Assembly (NCBI GenBank): GCA_963708295.1
Contig: CAVPSJ010000007.1
Location: 1 to 64,000 of the forward strand
Length of the DNA stretch: 64,000 nt
Source: an uncultured delta proteobacterium
GTDB taxonomy: Bacteria > Desulfobacterota > BSN033 > UBA1163
Direction of reading: 5' to 3'
Every line of letters starts with the position of its first letter. Position 1 is the stretch's first letter. Below are positions 32,711 to 51,805 of the stretch, one piece after another. A program made the translations under genes and the position numbers. The notes beneath the pieces were generated by a model. That model was not told the DNA's origin, did not search any database, and saw nothing but the letters and a program-made list of their open reading frames with translations.

Positions 32711-34252
32711 TCACTCCGGCTGCTTCAGATACATTTCGAGGCGGCAATTGAAGCCTCCGAGATCAATCACCTTCCGGTACTTCAATTTGAGCGATGGGTC
32801 CAGGGGTTCTATGCGCAGGGGGTTGGCAAATATGAGCCGTCCCCCAGGCTTTAACACTTCGGCAGCGGCGACAAAAAGATCCCCAAACAATCCGCGGAGG
32901 TTGGGGATACGAATTCGCCTTCCCATGGGAGGGTTGGTGATGATGAGGGTAACGCTCTTGGGTCCCAGGCCTTCCATCTTGACATGGTCGCGAAAATCAC
33001 AGCAGGCGAGCTTCGCCCGAATGTTCTTCAATTTCGCGGCGGCAAGGTTGGCCCGGCAAATGGCAATGGCATCGGGGCTGAGATCCGTTCCGTAGATGCT
33101 CTGTACGCCGCCCAGCAGTGCCCTTTCTATTAGCTCTAAACCCGATCCGCAGAACGGGTCCCAGACGATCTCATGGTTGTCCCTTCTGCCCAGGCGGGCC
33201 ATACAGGCGGCCAACGGAGGGTGGGAGGCTGCACGAATGTCCTGCTCGCGATAGGTAAATCGCGGATCGGGCGTCAGCTTCGGGCGCAATTCGACAGAAA
33301 TTCCATGTCCGGTGGGGAGGAAATCCATCGACCAGGGAGCGCTTCGCGGATCGTTGAGAATGTCCGGGCACATCGCATAGGCCCGATTCGCCAGGAGACG
33401 AACAGCGCCCCTCTGGTGCCCCTTGTCAACAAACTCCAGACGATAGCGAATGGATCCCTCTGTGAAAGCTGCCAGAACAGATCGCGACAGGGGCGAAGTC
33501 ATCATTGACGCCAGACCATCAAGGGACTCTGTCGGGTCGGACTTCCGAACCTGGCCAAGAAAAAAGCCAACGGTGGCAAAACATCGAAGGGTATAAATGT
33601 CGTCCAGAGAAAAGGGCGCCACCGGTGTGATCGCGACCAGGCCGCTCCGCACCTCTACGATGCGGAATTTCCCGTGCTTCGCCGTATCCTCTTTCACTTC
33701 ATCGTGGAGAATCTCTTCCAGCCCCTTGCGGCAGTGCAAATGGATCCGCAAGCGGGTGAAATCGGAGAGGATCCTTTCCATTCGAATGACGCTCGGCCTT
33801 TCCCTGCGCGCCACACTGGCTTTCACCTTCTGTTCGGTTTGTGGAAGGAAGCCACGGTCCCCGGCCACGACATCCAGCGTAGCCGTTCCGCCGATTTTTT
33901 CCAGAGCCTGACCCAGGTATTTCTTCTCGCGCTCGACCGTGGTTGTCCGCAACAAGGAAAGCAGCGTCTCTTCCTCCCTGGTGCCGGCGCCAAGCTTTGG
34001 CAACGCCGTCATGGCATAGCGTCTCACTTTCTCGCTTGGATCCTGCAATAGACGAACAAGCCACGACCTCGCCTCGGCTTTCTGCTTCGCAGTCCCCACC
34101 TCGGAAAAGACGACGCCCACTGCGCGAATGACCGCCACTCGTTTTACTCGCTCCTCGGGAGTGGATCGATCGAACCGTGCGACCTCGTCGTTCCATAACC
34201 TTTCACACGATAAGCCGCGCAACCCGCGATAAAGTTCCTTGTCGGTTTTCAT
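32711..34252 (-). CDS. HEAT-repeat + class I SAM methyltransferase (TRM11/RlmL-like catalytic domain)
   Basis: 'LLQDPSEKVRRYAMTALPKLG' HEAT; 'AASHPPLAACM', 'WDPFCGSG', 'ITNPPMG'. Confidence 0.75.
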   Translation of the reverse strand: MKTDKELYRGLRGLSCERLWNDEVARFDRSTPEERVKRVAVIRAVGVVFSEVGTAKQKAEARSWLVRLLQDPSEKVRRYAMTALPKLGAGTREEETLLSLLRTTTVEREKKYLGQALEKIGGTATLDVVAGDRGFLPQTEQKVKASVARRERPSVIRMERILSDFTRLRIHLHCRKGLEEILHDEVKEDTAKHGKFRIVEVRSGLVAITPVAPFSLDDIYTLRCFATVGFFLGQVRKSDPTESLDGLASMMTSPLSRSVLAAFTEGSIRYRLEFVDKGHQRGAVRLLANRAYAMCPDILNDPRSAPWSMDFLPTGHGISVELRPKLTPDPRFTYREQDIRAASHPPLAACMARLGRRDNHEIVWDPFCGSGLELIERALLGGVQSIYGTDLSPDAIAICRANLAAAKLKNIRAKLACCDFRDHVKMEGLGPKSVTLIITNPPMGRRIRIPNLRGLFGDLFVAAAEVLKPGGRLIFANPLRIEPLDPSLKLKYRKVIDLGGFNCRLEMYLKQPE

Positions 34253-34490
34253 GGGCGAATGGAAACAGGGGGTTATTTCTAAACAATCTCCGAAACGCAA
34301 ATAAAATGGTAGCACAAACCTCCTTAAAGAATCCACATCGCCCGTAACCTCATCGGGCTGTCGAGTGATTCAACGGAATCATCGATCTTTCCCTTTTCTT
34401 GGCAACTTTCCCGGAGGTTGCCGTCAACATTCCGAAATGCAAAGAGCAAATCAAGGAATCAGGAACCAGAGGGGAGTGGGGTGGGACTAA

Positions 34491-34997
34491 TTAGAAAAAT
34501 GAGATTCTGGATCCAAATACCATTTGATAAAGGAATAAGGCCAGGAGCAGTATATTCAGAAGGAGGGAGGCGGTGAGAAGTCCTTTTGTGATTTTGTTGC
34601 CGGACTTCGTCTGCTTTTGATCGACCGGAATCGTTTTATCCGCGAGCGCAGCCCTGCTCTCCGCTTCTTCTCGCTCATCGAGAATCTTCGTGATCGTTCG
34701 GGTCAGTTTTTCATAATCCAGTTCCTTCTTCTCTTTGGGAATCGCTTCCTTAATCAGGTCGAGAAGTTCAGCTCGGATGGCGTCCGTAATTCCTTTCTTC
34801 AGTTTGGAAGAGAGTCGCTCCACCTCTTTTCGGATGGACTGCTCCGCTTGTCTTGATATTCCGTCCGCGGTTGTCTTTAGTTTCGCGGTGATCTCGGAAT
34901 CAACGGCCGCCTGTAGTTCCTCCTTAATATATTTTGCATAGATCTCCCCGAAGATTTCCTGTATTTCGGTTTTGTATTCCTGGCTTAAGCTCCCCAT
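34491..34997 (-). CDS. Helical/coiled-coil protein with C-terminal TM anchor
   Basis: Charged helical body, then 'GLLTASLLLNILLLALFLY'; third gene of the dynamin-like operon. Confidence 0.7.
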   Translation of the reverse strand: MGSLSQEYKTEIQEIFGEIYAKYIKEELQAAVDSEITAKLKTTADGISRQAEQSIRKEVERLSSKLKKGITDAIRAELLDLIKEAIPKEKKELDYEKLTRTITKILDEREEAESRAALADKTIPVDQKQTKSGNKITKGLLTASLLLNILLLALFLYQMVFGSRISFF

Positions 34998-35021
34998 GGC
35001 CCGGGCTTCCCCTCCGACGAT

Positions 35022-36866
35022 TTAGTGATCGGTATATTCGAGATATTTTAGGATTCCCCAGAGTTCCAGAAATCCTTTCAGCTTGATGTCGGTGCCGTCG
35101 TTTTTCCGGGGTTCTCTCCAGCCCCGGAGGGCTTTTAAAAAATCCTGCCTCAGTTGACCGTTCATCTGGGTCAGTGCGCCCGTGCTCTTCAACATTTCCT
35201 TCCCAAACAAGGACAGTTTCTTGAATTCCTCCTCGGCTTGACCCAGTTCCGCTGCCGCCCGTTCCTTTTTCTCTTCGTATTCCTGCGCGATGTCCCTTTC
35301 CCAGCCTCGTTTGAGCTCGCTGAATTGCTTTTGGACCGAAGCCTCAAGTTCTTCGATGTAATTTCTCAAGGGGGCGACCGGAACGCAATCCAACCCCTGC
35401 GCAAAAGACGTTTTCAGCTCTCGATTGACTCCCATATGGCAGAAATCCTTGATGTTTGACCAGAGCGGGTTTACCTTTAACTCTAATATTTTTTCTCTTA
35501 CACCCTTACTGTGAAATAATGCGGCTAAGAGAGAAGAGATTTCTTCCGGTTTCAGCGCCGAGTTTTTTATCTTGCTCCCGAGTTTATCGACCAGCGCGGA
35601 AACATAATCAGCCAAGTCTCTGACACTCCGATTGTAACGGTCGTTGGATCTATTGTCTACAATCTTCTCGCAGAGGCGGTTGATTTCCTCCCTGAGACCG
35701 TCGAAATTCACGATGTCCTCCAGAACGGGAAGGCCTGCCATTCTGTCTTTCTGACGCTCTCCCAGCACCTCCAAACTCCTTTTGACCGTATCCAGGGCGC
35801 CGCGGAGGTCCTTCTTTTTTCGAGAAAGTGAAGGCCTGAAGATTTCAAGCACCTGAATCAGTTTATCGGAGGCGTTTCCAAAATTAAGCAGATGTATCTT
35901 TCTGGCGTTCTCCGCAAGATGTCTTTCGATCTCCAGCAGACTCTTTTCCGTCAGCGTTTTGTAACGGAGGTAGCCGTTCTTCTGGCTCTTGAAAACAGAA
36001 AACAAGAAGCCAGAAAAACCCAGGTCCGTCTCCCTGGCATAGGTCAGGAATTTTTCGCGAATGAAAGTCTCGGGGTCCTCCAGGCCATGATCGCGGCAAG
36101 TCTTATCGAGCTGGTCAAAGAAATTCGAGACAAAGACGAGCCTTTCCCTTTCGATTTCTCGAGTCAGATGGCGGTTGTCATCCAAGACTTTCAGAGATTC
36201 CGACAGGTTGGGTTCGTTTCCGATCAGTATCCACAGAATGAGAGAGTGGTTAAACATTCTCACCGTCACTTCCTCTTCCGTCTCGGATTTCCACGACGCC
36301 AGCCCTGGCGTATCGTAAATCATATAATCTTTAAAAAACCTTACCGGGTAAAAGAGATCGATATAGTCGATGTGCTGAATCGGGTCGTATTCCCGTTCCG
36401 GATCGGCTTGGATGAGCCTGTGAAAGAGCTCGATGCCGGGCTCAGCCTCAAGAGGGATCTCAATACTGCTTTTTTTCTCGTCGAACCTTGCTTCATCCCA
36501 GCAGACCTCTTTCCTGAGGGACGCCGGGAGGGAACTCTGGGGGGAAAGTTTGAGGGAAGCCTTCTTTTCATTGCTGTGCTGAAGTCTTAGGATCCTGCGT
36601 GTTTCCGTCTTGCAGGTTTCAGGAATCACTTTGAGCCCGTCGCCCTCAAGGATGTAGTTCAGGAAGGAGGACTTCCCGGAACTCGTTTTCCCTGCGAGGT
36701 AGATGCTTTTTCGTTTCGAGGAAATCTCCTCGATGAAAAGCTCTACGAGCCTGACCAATCTCCGGCCTTCTTTCTCCTCGACCAATCCCCATTCGTCGGA
36801 GTCTCTGACGCATTGCAGCGTCTCAGCGAGTTGCCCCGCATAGGGACTGATGGCGTCAACCAACAT
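35022..36866 (-). CDS. Dynamin-like GTPase (bacterial DLP) B
   Basis: G1 'AGKTSSGKSSFLN', G2 'TET', G3 'YDTPG', G4-like 'NFFD'; long C-terminal coiled coil. Confidence 0.8.
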   Translation of the reverse strand: MLVDAISPYAGQLAETLQCVRDSDEWGLVEEKEGRRLVRLVELFIEEISSKRKSIYLAGKTSSGKSSFLNYILEGDGLKVIPETCKTETRRILRLQHSNEKKASLKLSPQSSLPASLRKEVCWDEARFDEKKSSIEIPLEAEPGIELFHRLIQADPEREYDPIQHIDYIDLFYPVRFFKDYMIYDTPGLASWKSETEEEVTVRMFNHSLILWILIGNEPNLSESLKVLDDNRHLTREIERERLVFVSNFFDQLDKTCRDHGLEDPETFIREKFLTYARETDLGFSGFLFSVFKSQKNGYLRYKTLTEKSLLEIERHLAENARKIHLLNFGNASDKLIQVLEIFRPSLSRKKKDLRGALDTVKRSLEVLGERQKDRMAGLPVLEDIVNFDGLREEINRLCEKIVDNRSNDRYNRSVRDLADYVSALVDKLGSKIKNSALKPEEISSLLAALFHSKGVREKILELKVNPLWSNIKDFCHMGVNRELKTSFAQGLDCVPVAPLRNYIEELEASVQKQFSELKRGWERDIAQEYEEKKERAAAELGQAEEEFKKLSLFGKEMLKSTGALTQMNGQLRQDFLKALRGWREPRKNDGTDIKLKGFLELWGILKYLEYTDH

Positions 36867-36937
36867 TTATTCCACTCTCCTGAAGGTCGTTTGAACACCG
36901 CCCCCACAAATCACCGCAGAGGGGAACCCTAGAACCT

Positions 36938-39265
36938 TTACCCTCCATGATTGGATTCCGCATCGGGAGGAGGAAGGGGGCCAGAGGTTTTGAATTGAAG
37001 CTGATAGGTCTCGAAGATATGGATCGCGCGATCGCAAAGCCCCATGCCCTTTGAAGCCTCATCGGATTCCCTGCTTTTCGGCTTAAATGTTTCTTCCAAT
37101 CCTTCGAAGATCGCATTCTGGACCTCTTCATAGGTCGGTTCAAGAATTTTCTTAAAATGGTCAAAGAAGTCGTCTTGGTTCTCCACGATGGCGCTTTCCA
37201 GCTTTCCCTTCAGCTCATCCAGCATGTCGTTCAGCATCAAACCGAGGTCGACCAAATCCTTGACGATCAGCAGCCATCCGACGAAAGGGATCCCTTTGGC
37301 GGGTGCAATCTCCGCCTGCTCTTTCGCGTAATCCAGGCTGAGCTTGACGAAGATTTTCCTGAACATCTTTACAAAGAGCTTCTTAAATTTGGTCATCCCC
37401 CTCTTTCTCATGTCGGAGGCTGCCATTTTTTTGACCAGGCCCCCCATCATTTTTCCCAGCTTATCCATCAGGTCCTTCACGACCTCATTGACCCCTGAGT
37501 CGTCAAACCTGGCGTGCTTGACGCCGCCCTTCGCGTTCACCCCGTCGCGTTTTCCCTTTCCTATTCTGAATTCCTTCGTTCCGATCTTTTCGCCGCCAAG
37601 AGATCCCAGAGTGACCTCAGCAATGATATTCTTGACCTCCTCGACCGCCTCCGCAATGAGGCGCTCCGTCTTCGCCTCCGCCAGGGTTTCGAACTCCGCA
37701 TCGATAATCCTGCTGATCTCCCTCATCACAGGCCCCTCGTCATCGCCCCGGAAAATCTGTGGAGTCATCTGCTTTAAGAATTCTTTCCAGAGATCTTTCT
37801 TGCCGATTCTTTTGCCGATCTCTTCGAGTATTCTCTTTACGAGATTCTCGCTCATCTGCATGGAGTACCTTTGGATTTTCGCAAGATACCACTCCCGGTA
37901 GTTCCGGCGGATCGCCTCCTTCAAGGCCTCCCTTTTCTCCCGCTCCTTTGCAAATGCCCGATCTTTTTCCTCGATGACCTTCTGGTATTCACCCCTTTTT
38001 CCATTTATGGCCGACAGGATATTCTGTTGCCCGTAGAGACGGGTCACTCCGTTTTTGACCCTCGCGATCTTCTCTTGAAGCGACCGGTTGAAAATCACCT
38101 CCTGCGCAAAGTGCTCGATGGCAGGCAGCATGGAGCTCTCGAAGGAAAGGGATCTCCCTTTTTCCGTCAGGACATATCCGCGGTCCTTCTTTTTGATAAA
38201 ACGATTTGTGTAAAGCCAATGGAGGAACCGGTCTCTGTCGAATGGAGCCTTTTTTTCTGTCAGGCCACCGTCGTCACAGCCGTTCCAAAGTGAAAATTCG
38301 TTCATCACGGAATCCTCATCGGAAAATGGAAATCCATGGCTCAAATAGTTCCAAACCATTCTTAACCCGGCTTCCTCGCCCGGCAGAATGTCATCCGAGT
38401 TGGCGAGGATTTGGTCGGGCTTCATCCCCAGTGCGGATTCAGCCGCCAGCCCGTTATAAACGAAAAAACAGATGCGTTCCTTTCCTCCAAACTCCTTTCT
38501 GAGAAGCAACTTCTTCTCGGTCTCTTCAAAAAATTCCTTAAGCACATCCCTCACTCCGTTCACACCGTCGCTCTGGTAGAGATCGTCGGCGAATCCGAGG
38601 ACACCGATAATGTTTCCATTATCCCGATGGATCAGGGGAATCAGTCTCGTGTTGAATGAATCGAGGATCTGGTTCCGTTTGTTCATCCATACAACCAGAT
38701 CCGCCCCTATGAATAAGTGCTTGATTTTCTGTAGAAAATCCGCAGTCACGGTGTTCAATCCGGGCGTATTAATGAATTGAATCGACTGGAGCAGCGGATT
38801 GCGGGAATAGATTTCAAAGAATGCGATCGAGTCCCGATAAGCGGCGTTTTTCTTAAGCTCGCCGTTGGTGCTCAAGTCGATGCGTTTGTAGAATTCATCG
38901 CGGCTGATCCATTCCTCCGTATAAACACCTTCTCGGTCGGTGAAATACTTGACGCTGGCCTTCTTCTCTAGCTCGGCATTTTCCGTGTGGGACAGTTTGA
39001 TGATACTTCCTTCTGTTTCATCATAATGGCTGGTCATAATGGGCTCACCGAGCAGAAGGTTAATGAGGGTAGATTTTCCCGTTCCTTGCACACCGACGAC
39101 GGCTATCTTAAAGGGTTCGGTGAGAGAATCCCTGAGCGCGTCTATTTTCTCCAGCCCTTCACCGAAGATTTCAAGAAGATCCTTCTGCCCCGCCCTGGAT
39201 TTCATTAAGGCCTTTAATTCGTCCGACATGGCTGTCAGGGTATCGGCAATCCTCTCTCTCTCCAA
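36938..39265 (-). CDS. Dynamin-like GTPase (bacterial DLP) A
   Basis: G1 'VVGVQGTGKSTLIN', G3-like 'INTPG', helical stalk, hydrophobic paddle 'GIPFVGWLLIV'; likely TTG start at 39265 after GGAG. Confidence 0.8.
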   Translation of the reverse strand: MERERIADTLTAMSDELKALMKSRAGQKDLLEIFGEGLEKIDALRDSLTEPFKIAVVGVQGTGKSTLINLLLGEPIMTSHYDETEGSIIKLSHTENAELEKKASVKYFTDREGVYTEEWISRDEFYKRIDLSTNGELKKNAAYRDSIAFFEIYSRNPLLQSIQFINTPGLNTVTADFLQKIKHLFIGADLVVWMNKRNQILDSFNTRLIPLIHRDNGNIIGVLGFADDLYQSDGVNGVRDVLKEFFEETEKKLLLRKEFGGKERICFFVYNGLAAESALGMKPDQILANSDDILPGEEAGLRMVWNYLSHGFPFSDEDSVMNEFSLWNGCDDGGLTEKKAPFDRDRFLHWLYTNRFIKKKDRGYVLTEKGRSLSFESSMLPAIEHFAQEVIFNRSLQEKIARVKNGVTRLYGQQNILSAINGKRGEYQKVIEEKDRAFAKEREKREALKEAIRRNYREWYLAKIQRYSMQMSENLVKRILEEIGKRIGKKDLWKEFLKQMTPQIFRGDDEGPVMREISRIIDAEFETLAEAKTERLIAEAVEEVKNIIAEVTLGSLGGEKIGTKEFRIGKGKRDGVNAKGGVKHARFDDSGVNEVVKDLMDKLGKMMGGLVKKMAASDMRKRGMTKFKKLFVKMFRKIFVKLSLDYAKEQAEIAPAKGIPFVGWLLIVKDLVDLGLMLNDMLDELKGKLESAIVENQDDFFDHFKKILEPTYEEVQNAIFEGLEETFKPKSRESDEASKGMGLCDRAIHIFETYQLQFKTSGPLPPPDAESNHGG

Positions 39266-39411
39266 ATTTCGTTCTCCAAAGTCGCCCCCTTTTTCCAAAA
39301 CTTCCTCTCTCCTCAAAAGCGAATGACCAGGCTTATTTGAAATGGAATTTCCTCTCGCTCTTTGCAACGTTGTCGCAGGATATGGGAGATTCTTCACGGT
39401 GGCAATAATCA

Positions 39412-39427
39412 AGCATTTTTTGTGCCA
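39412..39427 (-). promoter_or_regulatory. sigma54 -24/-12 promoter of the dynamin-like operon
   Basis: Minus strand TGGCAC-AAAAA-ATGCT. Confidence 0.6.
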
Positions 39428-39537
39428 GAAGTGGACGTCTATAACTGCATGGTTTAAAAGGCTTTCTGCCAAAAAGAGGAAATCGAACTGGTCAGAAATC
39501 GGCCAAAAATGTCCTAAGTGTGATGAATTGTACTAAA

Positions 39538-39680: not shown

Positions 39681-40901
39681 TTAGGAGCGATAGGAGGCGT
39701 TAATTTTGACATAATCGATGGAGAAATCGGAAGTGAGGACTGAGAATTCGCTCTTGCCCTGATGGAGATCAACCGTAACCTTGAAGGATTTGTTTTTGAG
39801 AGTCTGACCGGCCCGCTCTTCTATCCTACCGCCTACTCCCATTCCTTTTTTCACGATGGGAGCTTTATCAAAATAGACGTCAACTTTGTTCGGATCGATG
39901 TGCGCGCCGGAATAGCCCAGAGCGCAAAGAATCCTCCCCCAGTTGGCATCCTCCCCGAAGAATGCCGTCTTCACCAGCGGCGAATGGGCAACCGAATAAG
40001 CCGCCTGTTTGGCCTCTTCCTTGTTTCGGGCACCCCGGATCAGGATTTCGACGAATTTCGTCGCCCCCTCTCCATCCTTTACCACACTTTCGGCCAGACT
40101 CCGGCAGACTTTTGAAAGCATCGACTGGAATGCCTCGCCATCCCGGTCCATACGGCTCAAAAAGGGATGGCCTGCCTTTCCGTTGGCTAAAAGCAATACC
40201 GTGTCATTGGTACTGGTTTCCCCGTCCACCGTAATCCGGTTGTACGATGCCTCAGCCGCCTCTCTCAGCATTCGTTGGAGAAGGGGAGTTTTAATGCGGG
40301 CGTCCGTGACCAGGAAGGAGAGCATCGTTGCCACATCGGGGCGAATCATTCCTGCGCCCTTGACCATCCCGCAGAGCTTCACCTGTTTTCCCTTGATGCG
40401 GCAGGTCGCCACTTCAACCTTCGGAAAGGTATCTGTGGTCATAATCGCTTCTACCGTACTCATCCAACCTTCCGGAGAAAGGCGAACCACCAATTCCGGA
40501 ACTCCTTCCTCAATCTTCTTGATCGGGAGGGGGCTCCCGATCACTCCGGTCGAGGAAGAAAACACCAGCCCTTCGTCGATCCCCAGGCGCTCTGCGACAA
40601 CCAAAGTCATCCTTTTGGCGTCTTCCAGCCCTCGGCTCCCCGTACAGGCATTCGCATTTCCGCTGTTCACAACGATGGCCTGGCAGAGGCCTCTCTTCAT
40701 ACGCGCTCGATCCAATTGTACGGGGGCTGCTTTCACGGCATTGGTGGTGAAAAGCCCGGCCACCTGGGCGGGAACCTCGGAATAAATCAAGCCTAAATCT
40801 CTCTTTCCATTCTTCTTAATCCCCGCGGCAATCCCTGAAAAAAGAAAACCCGGCACCCTAAAATCAAGTGGCTTCATCTTACGTCTCGCTTTTGCTCCCA
40901 T
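39681..40901 (-). CDS. argJ: Bifunctional ornithine acetyltransferase/N-acetylglutamate synthase
   Basis: 'NSGNANACTG', 'STGVIG', 'IMTTDT', 'KGAGMIRPDVATML', 'DGEGATK', 'INASYRS'. Confidence 0.96.
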   Translation of the reverse strand: MGAKARRKMKPLDFRVPGFLFSGIAAGIKKNGKRDLGLIYSEVPAQVAGLFTTNAVKAAPVQLDRARMKRGLCQAIVVNSGNANACTGSRGLEDAKRMTLVVAERLGIDEGLVFSSSTGVIGSPLPIKKIEEGVPELVVRLSPEGWMSTVEAIMTTDTFPKVEVATCRIKGKQVKLCGMVKGAGMIRPDVATMLSFLVTDARIKTPLLQRMLREAAEASYNRITVDGETSTNDTVLLLANGKAGHPFLSRMDRDGEAFQSMLSKVCRSLAESVVKDGEGATKFVEILIRGARNKEEAKQAAYSVAHSPLVKTAFFGEDANWGRILCALGYSGAHIDPNKVDVYFDKAPIVKKGMGVGGRIEERAGQTLKNKSFKVTVDLHQGKSEFSVLTSDFSIDYVKINASYRS

Positions 40902-51379: not shown

Positions 51380-51715
51380 TTACTTCGCTATCATTTTACA
51401 ATTTCCCTCAAAAATTCCGCCGTCCTGAATCACAAAAACGGGAGTAAAAACGGTCCCGAATAACTTTCCTCTCGCATGGATCTCCATTCGCTCTTTGGCA
51501 GTTACATCTCCTTCCAAGCTGCCATTGAGGATCAGGGTTGTGGCCTCTACTTTCCCCTTAATGACCGCTGTTTCGCCTATGATTAATGTCCCGGTATGAT
51601 AGATTTCTCCCTCCACTTTCCCATCGAGGCGAAATATTCCTTCCGAATTGACTTTCCCCTTTAACAAGGAATCTTTGCCCCAAAAAACATTCATCTCTTC
51701 TGTGACTGGCTTCAT
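51380..51715 (-). CDS. Bactofilin (polymer-forming cytoskeletal protein)
   Basis: 'LDGKVEGEI...GTLIIGETAVIKG', 'G.FEGNCKM'. Confidence 0.9.
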   Translation of the reverse strand: MKPVTEEMNVFWGKDSLLKGKVNSEGIFRLDGKVEGEIYHTGTLIIGETAVIKGKVEATTLILNGSLEGDVTAKERMEIHARGKLFGTVFTPVFVIQDGGIFEGNCKMIAK

Positions 51716-51789: not shown

Positions 51790-51805
51790 AGCAATATTAG
51801 TGCCA
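51790..51805 (-). promoter_or_regulatory. sigma54 promoter of the bactofilin gene
   Basis: Minus strand TGGCAC-TAATA-TTGCT, matching the consensus. Confidence 0.7.

Follow-up and report, generated by a model that had tools for sequence, protein, structure and literature searches.

What do paired bacterial dynamin-like proteins (DLPs) work with, and what switches them on? Paired bacterial dynamins are widespread, and their regulation and partners are largely unknown. A locus that bears on both questions was found in a window of 64,000 nucleotides (nt), by which we mean the whole stretch of DNA that was analyzed (positions 1 to 64,000, forward strand, of contig CAVPSJ010000007.1, assembly GCA_963708295.1). 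It comes from an uncultured delta proteobacterium whose genome (G000) is 91.5% complete. Open reading frame (ORF) analysis of the window showed three co-oriented genes, g1, g2, and g3 (the trio; Table 1), on the minus strand between argJ and a methyltransferase-domain gene. We found that g1 has the fold of the BDLP/mitofusin class of DLPs, that membrane segments are found in g1 and g3 and not in g2, and that the three genes strictly co-occur behind a conserved promoter. Genes and promoter make up a presence/absence cassette of about 5.4 kb with defined boundaries. The reading that we prefer, with a probability of about 0.45, is that the cassette encodes an induced heterotypic DLP machine for membrane remodeling or repair, in which g3 would be the anchor or organizer.

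A first-pass annotation of this DNA had described three co-oriented genes of about 775, 614, and 168 amino acids (aa) next to argJ, at the end of an accessory region and behind a TGGCAC-N5-ATGCT motif. The genes, the motif, and argJ were all where it had put them; the sizes of g2 and g3 were exact, and the size given for g1 falls between the 786 aa that we favor and the 763 aa of the public annotation. The results presented here also bear out its description of g1 and g2 as divergent dynamin-like GTPases, of g3 as a tail-anchored protein unlike any recognized partner, and of the motif as a sigma-54 promoter. Its suggestions of a defense role and of a likeness to the psp response fared less well and are taken up with the alternatives.

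Two dynamin-like proteins

The search with Pfam Dynamin_N, which has a gathering score of 27 bits, gave 47.7 bits for g1 (2.2e-12) and 40.3 bits for g2 (4.4e-10). A profile-profile comparison (hhalign) showed that the two are homologous over the GTPase domain only (95.6% probability, E 1.1e-8, 214 columns). In a whole-genome Dynamin_N scan of G000, g1 and g2 were the only clear matches; two further matches were weak and partial (E 3.3e-4 and 7e-3), and we take them to be other GTPases. Single-sequence searches of the PDB returned nothing significant for g1, g2, or g3. When the g1 sequence profile was compared with solved structures, the sole DLP reached was Nostoc BDLP (5.8e-7), and neither single-sequence nor profile searches of the PDB with g2 found a DLP.

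An AlphaFold2 model of g1 was built from an alignment of 26 sequences, with identities down to 27%, and had a mean predicted local distance difference test (pLDDT) score of 71.8. The best Foldseek match of this model was Nostoc BDLP (2j69, E 5.6e-13), and the other top matches were SynDLP, IniA (6j72, 6j73), Cj-DLP1/2, and mitofusins. The alignments to BDLP, SynDLP, IniA, and Cj-DLP1/2 covered the whole of g1, extending over 770–885 columns at about 12% identity, with a probability of 1.00. TM-scores for these structural matches were low (0.2–0.35), as expected of flexible multi-domain proteins. After the GTPase domain, the model has the helical neck and trunk of the BDLP/mitofusin fold.

The nucleotide motifs of the two proteins differ. 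In g1, the G1 motif is kept (GVQGTGKST; GxQGTGKS in the family), and NTPG takes the place of DxxG in all 26 sequences, including those of the 27%–31% identity tier; no invariant switch-1 threonine was evident in the same alignment. In g2, both motifs are canonical and invariant: GKTSSGKS (GxxxxGKS) and DTPG. The proteins also differ in their membrane segments. A hydrophobic segment of g1 (residues 664–690, GIPFVGWLLIV, Kyte-Doolittle value 1.64) is preceded by a basic amphipathic stretch (626–655), and residues 626–690 together look like a membrane paddle. The hydropathy maximum of g2 is 0.89, and the protein has no hydrophobic or paddle segment. Although the g2 model is of low confidence, its best Foldseek matches were again BDLP, SynDLP, and Cj-DLP.

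The g1 model also showed an insert after the GTPase domain, at residues 355–390 (window positions about 38129–38236, minus strand), with a helix/beta-hairpin/helix arrangement and pLDDT values of 87–94. It gave weak winged-helix matches (HTH_45, E 0.007; Sso10a, 0.007) and contains a TEKG motif conserved across the g1 family. We know of no insert like it in other DLPs.

An orphan tail-anchored protein

The third product, g3, has a single hydrophobic segment at residues 139–160 of 168 (19-residue Kyte-Doolittle mean 2.22). With this lone C-terminal membrane helix and a charged, conserved N-terminus, it has the features of a tail-anchored protein, and the lysines ahead of the helix suggest that the N-terminus is cytoplasmic. 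In the close-family alignment, a conserved part (residues 1–112, sharpest at 5–28) is followed by a variable linker (113–138) and the membrane helix. The ratio of nonsynonymous to synonymous substitution rates was 0.10 in the N-terminal part, 0.54 in the linker, and 0.17 in the membrane segment (16 sequences; 120 pairs, 116 for the helix). This shows that g3 is a real gene under purifying selection, laid out like a tail-anchored adaptor.

The composition of g3 suggests a helical, perhaps coiled-coil, character, and its matches to helical families were weak (E about 0.01). Beyond such chance-level helical similarities, no family and no described partner was found for it in Pfam, NCBIfam, PADLOC, or the PDB. 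The sequence has no P-loop, and profile-profile comparisons showed no similarity to g1 or to g2 (0.3% and 0.4% probability, respectively).

A word-indexed search revealed 160 relatives of g3; the 120 listed were 73%–96% identical, and almost all were exactly 168 aa long. The profile search of 1.84 billion cluster representatives gave eight matches. One was a full-length cluster, and five were pieces of close-family members, either fragmentary or frameshifted. The remaining two were divergent singletons: P0266, with 134 aa, from a 3080-nt contig, and P0268, with 112 aa, from a 977-nt contig. The N-terminal motif MG.LS.E[YF]K.EIQEIFGEIY is retained in both singletons, and the C-terminal membrane helix in P0266.

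Linkage and distribution of the trio

The linkage of the genes was analyzed in 36 loci at which a relative of g2 is encoded; one is the window, four are from genome collections, and 31 are metagenome contigs. Collapsing near-identical contigs at 97% nucleotide identity left about 29 lineages. Of the 29 loci that continue for 250 nt or more past g2, 28 have g3 there, so the third gene does accompany the DLP pair elsewhere. The lone locus without g3 (L027) ends inside a dispersed repeat, which makes up its last 329 nt, and is therefore not a counter-example. Upstream of g2, g1 was present in 31 of 32 loci, the exception being a noisy contig (L046). The spacing between g2 and g3 was 14–30 nt in 20 of 23 loci and 181–200 nt in the other three, where a copy of the dispersed repeat is inserted. 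This makes g3 a candidate membrane adaptor strictly linked to a DLP pair.

Among the 69 matches to g2, all had at least 70% identity except P0189, with 40%. The 72 matches to g1 comprised a core at 69%–100% identity, P0248 at 50%, P0250 at 47%, and 11 full-length proteins at 27%–31%. P0248 (a g1 relative) and P0189 (a g2 relative) each lie on a single contig of 7399 nt, and the g1–g2 pair therefore probably persists at 40%–50% identity. A metagenome scan with P0189 alone found nothing, and a scan with the alignment did not return the P0189 contig either.

Only some members of one bacterial group, from wetlands and sediments, were found to have the cassette. In the genus, four of 15 genomes had a g3 gene, and none of 26 other sampled relatives did; a scan of the genome collection with g3 revealed only two close relatives. 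Across 401 genomes sampled from the phylum, the search with the g3 profile gave G000 alone, plus two short chance-level matches, and that with g1 gave G000 alone at E ≤ 1e-8 (two candidates scored per genome). By the names attached to the matching sequences, the lineage belongs among Thermodesulfobacteriota metagenome-assembled genomes.

The dispersed intergenic repeat starts with CAGGTTGCTGAAAAAGTGG and has 65–75 blastn matches in G000. Copies were located in L005 (11872–12052), L024 (4124–4323), and L027 (6333–6658); in some lineages, the repeat sits between g2 and g3 with both genes intact. Two contigs, L046 and L047, were considered as divergent g2–g3 pairs and rejected: both belong to the close family and come from one metagenome, and the many frameshifts in their genes are probably sequencing noise rather than signs of pseudogenes.

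A sigma-54-type promoter and its upstream site

The window contained two matches to TGGCACNNNNNWTGCW against 0.05 expected, and none of 100 shuffles reached two. One of them is the -24/-12 element ahead of g1, TGGCACAAAAAATGCT. In the whole of G000, TGGCAC-N5-TTGCW occurs 25 times and its ATGCW variant 10 times, against about 4.7 expected for each (about fivefold for TTGCW). With so many look-alike motifs in the genome, it is conservation, and not the match alone, that carries the argument for a promoter. All 23 loci with upstream sequence have TGG(C/A)A(C/T)AAAAAATGCT. The element was exact in 18 loci and had one or two substitutions in five, which never touched the GG or the GC; the -24 GG and the -12 GC are kept in 23 of 23, with canonical spacing and orientation. 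G000 encodes RpoN (Sigma54_DBD, 4e-62, contig C13) and has 27 Sigma54_activat matches, 22 of them with E ≤ 1e-56. Because the element is conserved and the genome encodes both rpoN and enhancer-binding proteins (EBPs), the reading as a sigma-54 promoter is strongly backed. Transcription is predicted to start near 39401.

Upstream of the promoter lies a block that is nearly invariant in a three-species alignment, a candidate activator site. Its core is an imperfect palindrome, TGGCCGATTTCTGACCA (39505–39489), which in G006, another carrier of the trio, is a perfect TGGTCA-N5-TGACCA. The block, which contains TGG(C/T)C(A/G)ATTnnTGACCA, was found in 21 of the 23 loci (15 pattern-matched and six block-like), and is a perfect palindrome in some of them. 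In the 15 pattern-matched loci, it starts at a fixed 77–78 nt upstream of the TGG, even though the distance between promoter and gene varies. Its exact pattern is unique in G000.

The distance from the promoter to g1 ranges from 74 to 430 nt among the loci, which is explained by a conserved longer variant of the leader. This long leader (300–430 nt, mutually conserved) replaces the one of about 130 nt in L009 (4210–4639), L020, L027, L038, and L049, and had no match in Rfam.

The identical 16-nt TGGCACAAAAAATGCT recurs twice in G000, at C11:50575 (L062) and C20:30234. At C11, a site like the activator block, TGTCCAAAATCTGACCA, lies 80 nt ahead of the promoter core. The gene that this copy precedes has a 351-aa product, which carries a membrane helix at its N-terminus and matches no Pfam family; this gene was present in nine of the 15 genomes of the genus, all four trio carriers among them. 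Of 97 sigma-54-like sites, 10 had a look-alike of the upstream site (TGGNCA-N5-TGNCCA-like, at most three mismatches) in the 200 nt ahead of them. In random windows (200 sets), the mean was 0.58 and the maximum three, and the downstream side gave none. Given this enrichment, the cassette appears to be plugged into a host class of enhancer-dependent promoters, and the look-alike sites may belong to one regulon or to a family of related activators.

Promoters bearing such look-alikes lie ahead of a CsgG-like lipoprotein with an SH3 domain, of double-zinc-ribbon proteins, and of what, on our reading of the sequences, we take to be pilB-pilT-pilC-like genes. The C20 copy of the promoter element precedes a presumably HigB/HigA-like toxin-antitoxin pair, after which come large helicase-like genes. 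The window has a second sigma-54-type site, TGGCACTAATATTGCT (51790–51805, minus strand), about 75 nt upstream of a 111-aa ORF (51380–51715, minus strand) with a repetitive, G/V/I-rich product that is presumably bactofilin-like.

A presence/absence cassette

Where the first-pass annotation had placed the trio at the end of an accessory region, we found that the accessory unit is the trio itself, together with its promoter. One genome of the genus, G004, has an exact empty site that joins the flanks seen in G006. The first ~95 nt after argJ in G004 align to the start of the argJ–g1 spacer of G006, the remaining ~270 nt align to the end of its g3–recD2 spacer, and the same RecD2 and PD-(D/E)XK genes come next in both genomes. 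The unit defined by this empty site thus takes in the promoter with its upstream site, all three genes, and about 280 nt of downstream sequence.

The trio follows argJ in most loci (13 metagenome loci, plus L006 and L009). In G010, the trio keeps its order in another genomic context, flanked by genes for an AAA_14/DUF4143 ATPase and a beta-lactamase-fold protein, and several contigs have no argJ upstream of the trio. The SecA identity to the window was 87%–89% in genomes of the genus without the trio and 88%–95% in carriers; genomes lacking the trio are thus no more distant than those that carry it. The GC content of the cassette (49%–51%) equals that of the genome (49.9%), so that nothing in its composition points to a recent transfer. 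Neither an integrase nor a transposase was seen. At the cassette borders in G006 (L006, about 6960 and about 12520), there is a direct repeat with eight of 10 positions shared, CTGCAGTCCC / CTGCATCCCC, which is too little to call a target duplication.

Comparison with known systems

In profile hidden Markov model searches and PADLOC, no described system matched all three genes. In bacteria, most DLPs are encoded in pairs within operons and work as heterotypic complexes; Cj-DLP1/2 (84.5 and 71.2 kDa) assemble into a 2:2 tetramer, which tethers membranes or liposomes (PMC6104087). The trio resembles the Campylobacter jejuni cj0411-cj0412 operon in size, order, and fold class, with a larger and a smaller DLP side by side and a third, non-dynamin gene; both Cj-DLP chains were among the best structural matches of g1 and g2. 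However, neither single-sequence nor profile searches of the PDB gave a significant sequence match to them, and the third gene, cj0413, is described as encoding an HcpA-like beta-lactamase (PMC6104087), whereas g3 is tail-anchored. The GTPase, neck, and trunk of Nostoc punctiforme BDLP1 are paralleled in g1, and its tip paddle has a putative counterpart in the paddle-like stretch of g1; g1 differs in its low identity (about 12%), in having NTPG for DxxG, and in its extra winged-helix-like insert.

LeoC of enterotoxigenic Escherichia coli has 206 aa and a C-terminal 22-residue anchor; it is the N-terminal half of a split GTPase, with the P-loop and switch 1, and is encoded upstream (PMC4159319). 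LeoABC is, like the trio, a three-gene dynamin locus in which one small product has a C-terminal membrane anchor, but g3 lies downstream and has neither a GTPase motif nor DLP homology. The PADLOC LeoA model matched g1 at E 5e-5 over residues 37–96 only, and the LeoBC model matched it at E 3e-3; LeoA matched g2 at E 3e-3, with no stretch passing on its own. Because these models match the P-loop region only and g3 is unlike LeoC, the locus is not an Eleos/LeoABC system, Eleos being the name of the LeoABC-type defense system.

IniA is induced by drug treatment (PMC6715688), and DynA has been associated with protection from phages and from antibiotics that form pores (PMC12998192). Together, IniA and DynA show that DLPs of bacteria can serve as membrane proteins linked to stress or infection. 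The mycobacterial iniBAC operon is stress-induced and combines two DLPs with a third protein, as in the trio, and IniA is structurally near g1; it differs in having no sequence-level match to the trio. IniB is a Gly/Ala-rich protein that is not known to be related to g3. To our knowledge, the regulation of iniBAC is not sigma-54-dependent, and we know of no report of sigma-54 control of the Cj-DLP operon.

The literature search found no publication linking a bacterial dynamin with an EBP, and among the matches listed for "bacterial dynamin" and "tail-anchored", all concern eukaryotic organelles. Three points are new here: a sigma-54/enhancer control region that accompanies the genes from locus to locus, the g3 family, and the invariant NTPG of the g1 family.

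Proposed role and alternatives

From the arrangement of genes, segments, and sites, we infer heterodimerization of g1 and g2, a role of g3 as anchor, induction by an EBP, and a physiological role at the membrane. Transcription would normally be off until a host EBP, bound at a site about 78 nt ahead of the -24 element, turned the cassette on. The g1 protein would act as a complete BDLP/mitofusin-type DLP with its own membrane-binding paddle, and g2 as a divergent partner DLP with a canonical GTP site and without a membrane-binding segment, while g3 would be held in the cytoplasmic membrane by its C-terminal helix. A heterotypic complex of g1 and g2 could then bind, tether, remodel, or reseal the cytoplasmic membrane, like other paired bacterial DLPs, and the conserved cytoplasmic N-terminal helix of g3 would dock g2, or the g1/g2 complex, and so fix the site of assembly.

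Several observations weigh against such an induced membrane machine. The first-pass annotation had compared the locus with the psp response, and this likeness to psp/PspF stands for the type of regulation: an operon related to the membrane, with a -24/-12 promoter ahead of it and an activator site farther upstream. It fails for the parts. A search of G000 for PspA/IM30 (PF04012) found no such gene, the contig of the cassette (C7) has no EBP gene, whether next to the cassette or farther away, and the effectors are unrelated. The model of g2 is poor (pLDDT 61.3, with the GTPase domain mostly below 50). Given its unusual nucleotide motifs, g1 may hydrolyze GTP unlike a standard DLP. The patchy spread, with four carriers among the 15 genomes of the genus, would suit defense or niche genes no less than genes for stress repair.

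Eukaryotic Drp1, which has no membrane anchor of its own, is recruited by Mff and Fis1, small, partly helical receptors that are tail-anchored. The arrangement proposed for g2 and g3 would resemble this, as a working analogy only and without homology. A bolder version of the proposal, which we consider rather doubtful, is that the trio is an independent bacterial case of a soluble dynamin with a dedicated tail-anchored receptor. Then g3 would be the first bacterial DLP receptor, its invariant N-terminal helix would recruit g2 for pairing with a catalytically unusual g1, and the whole would form a portable cassette wired to sigma-54. The NTPG of the g1 family may show specialization of one partner in a heterotypic pair. 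Identifying the activator of the conserved promoter would reveal the inducing signal, and the cassette, small (5.4 kb) and self-contained, is suited to heterologous reconstitution.

The first alternative, which had also been put forward in the first-pass annotation, is an anti-phage defense module, DynA- or Eleos-like, that would delay lysis or seal the membrane, with g3 as sensor or anchor. We regard it as unlikely. It would suit an accessory presence/absence cassette at a variable site and patchy in the genus, adjoined by an AAA_14/DUF4143 ATPase in G010; LeoA and LeoBC are PADLOC models, and DynA is implicated in phage defense (PMC12998192). However, the LeoA and LeoBC matches are limited to the P-loop region (about 60 residues for g1), and the flanking genes of the loci examined do not form a defense island: they are housekeeping or miscellaneous genes, namely secA, argJ, a methyltransferase, RecD2 with a PD-(D/E)XK nuclease, a DAPG hydrolase, and a beta-lactamase-fold protein. 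A search of 50,697 phage records found no relatives, and 72,556 plasmid records gave only three matches, to the GTPase domain. The tight sigma-54 control points to a response to a defined signal. We thus found no positive evidence for a defense role.

Improbable in our view is a developmental or envelope-biogenesis role (septation, vesicles, or internal membranes) within a wider sigma-54 regulon, in place of stress repair. Streptomyces DLPs act in sporulation septation. In G000, the same 16-nt core, with a similar upstream site at like spacing, stands ahead of the unrelated 351-aa membrane protein, and related upstream sites precede the CsgG-like lipoprotein, the zinc-ribbon proteins, and the genes that we read as pilB-pilT-pilC-like. 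This shared motif may reflect related activators and not a single regulon. Moreover, 11 of the 15 genomes of the genus lack the cassette, as does every other genome sampled from the family, and therefore it cannot be a core developmental function.

It is still less probable that g2 and g3 are the halves of one split DLP, in the manner of LeoB/LeoC, with g3 as a detached stalk-and-paddle: g2 has no membrane segment, and g3 supplies one directly downstream, 14–30 nt away in most loci, with a precedent in the small membrane-anchored LeoC (PMC4159319) and very weak g3 matches to the LeoBC stalk (E 0.011) and the Sey1 three-helix bundle (E 0.014), but these matches are at the level expected for a helical, charged sequence, g3 is unrelated to g1 and g2 in the profile comparisons, and LeoC is described there as the upstream N-terminal GTPase half, whereas g3 lies downstream and has no P-loop.

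Gene calls and neighboring genes

The g1 reading frame is open from 39472. The TTG at 39298 is likely the start, since it has a GGAG ribosome-binding site ahead of it, an in-frame TAA lies just upstream in G006, and codon periodicity begins there. In 18 aligned loci, the variability of the third codon position (0.20 vs. 0.12 and 0.09 for the other two) starts at the TTG, and codon periodicity is absent from the 60 nt ahead of it. In three loci, CTG replaces the TTG codon, and the start may differ there. The public annotation of g1 (P0190) begins at the ATG at 39229 and gives 763 aa. A simple terminator scan showed nothing convincing downstream of g3, and an Rfam scan of the operon gave no credible family. 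On the upstream side, secA lies beyond argJ.

Table 1. Features of the trio and its immediate neighbors in the window
Feature	Position	Strand	Description
g1	36938–39298	minus	786 aa from TTG start; dynamin-like protein, BDLP/mitofusin class
g2	35022–36866	minus	614 aa; second, more divergent dynamin-like protein
g3	34491–34997	minus	168 aa; orphan tail-anchored protein
-24/-12 element	39412–39427	minus	TGGCAC-N5-ATGCT; 129 nt ahead of g1 TTG
Candidate upstream activator site	39479–39514	minus	Conserved block; putative function
5′ leader	39299–39411	minus	Promoter to g1 start; first ~30 nt conserved
argJ	39681–40901		Directly upstream of trio; Pfam ArgJ 3e-150
Methyltransferase-domain gene	32711–34336	minus	541 aa; just downstream of g3

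In the 541-aa neighbor, the first ~360 residues had no match at E ≤ 1e-5, and the UPF0020/RMKL-like methyltransferase domain is confined to residues 362–512. This gene follows the trio in some loci only (L025, L031, and L036).

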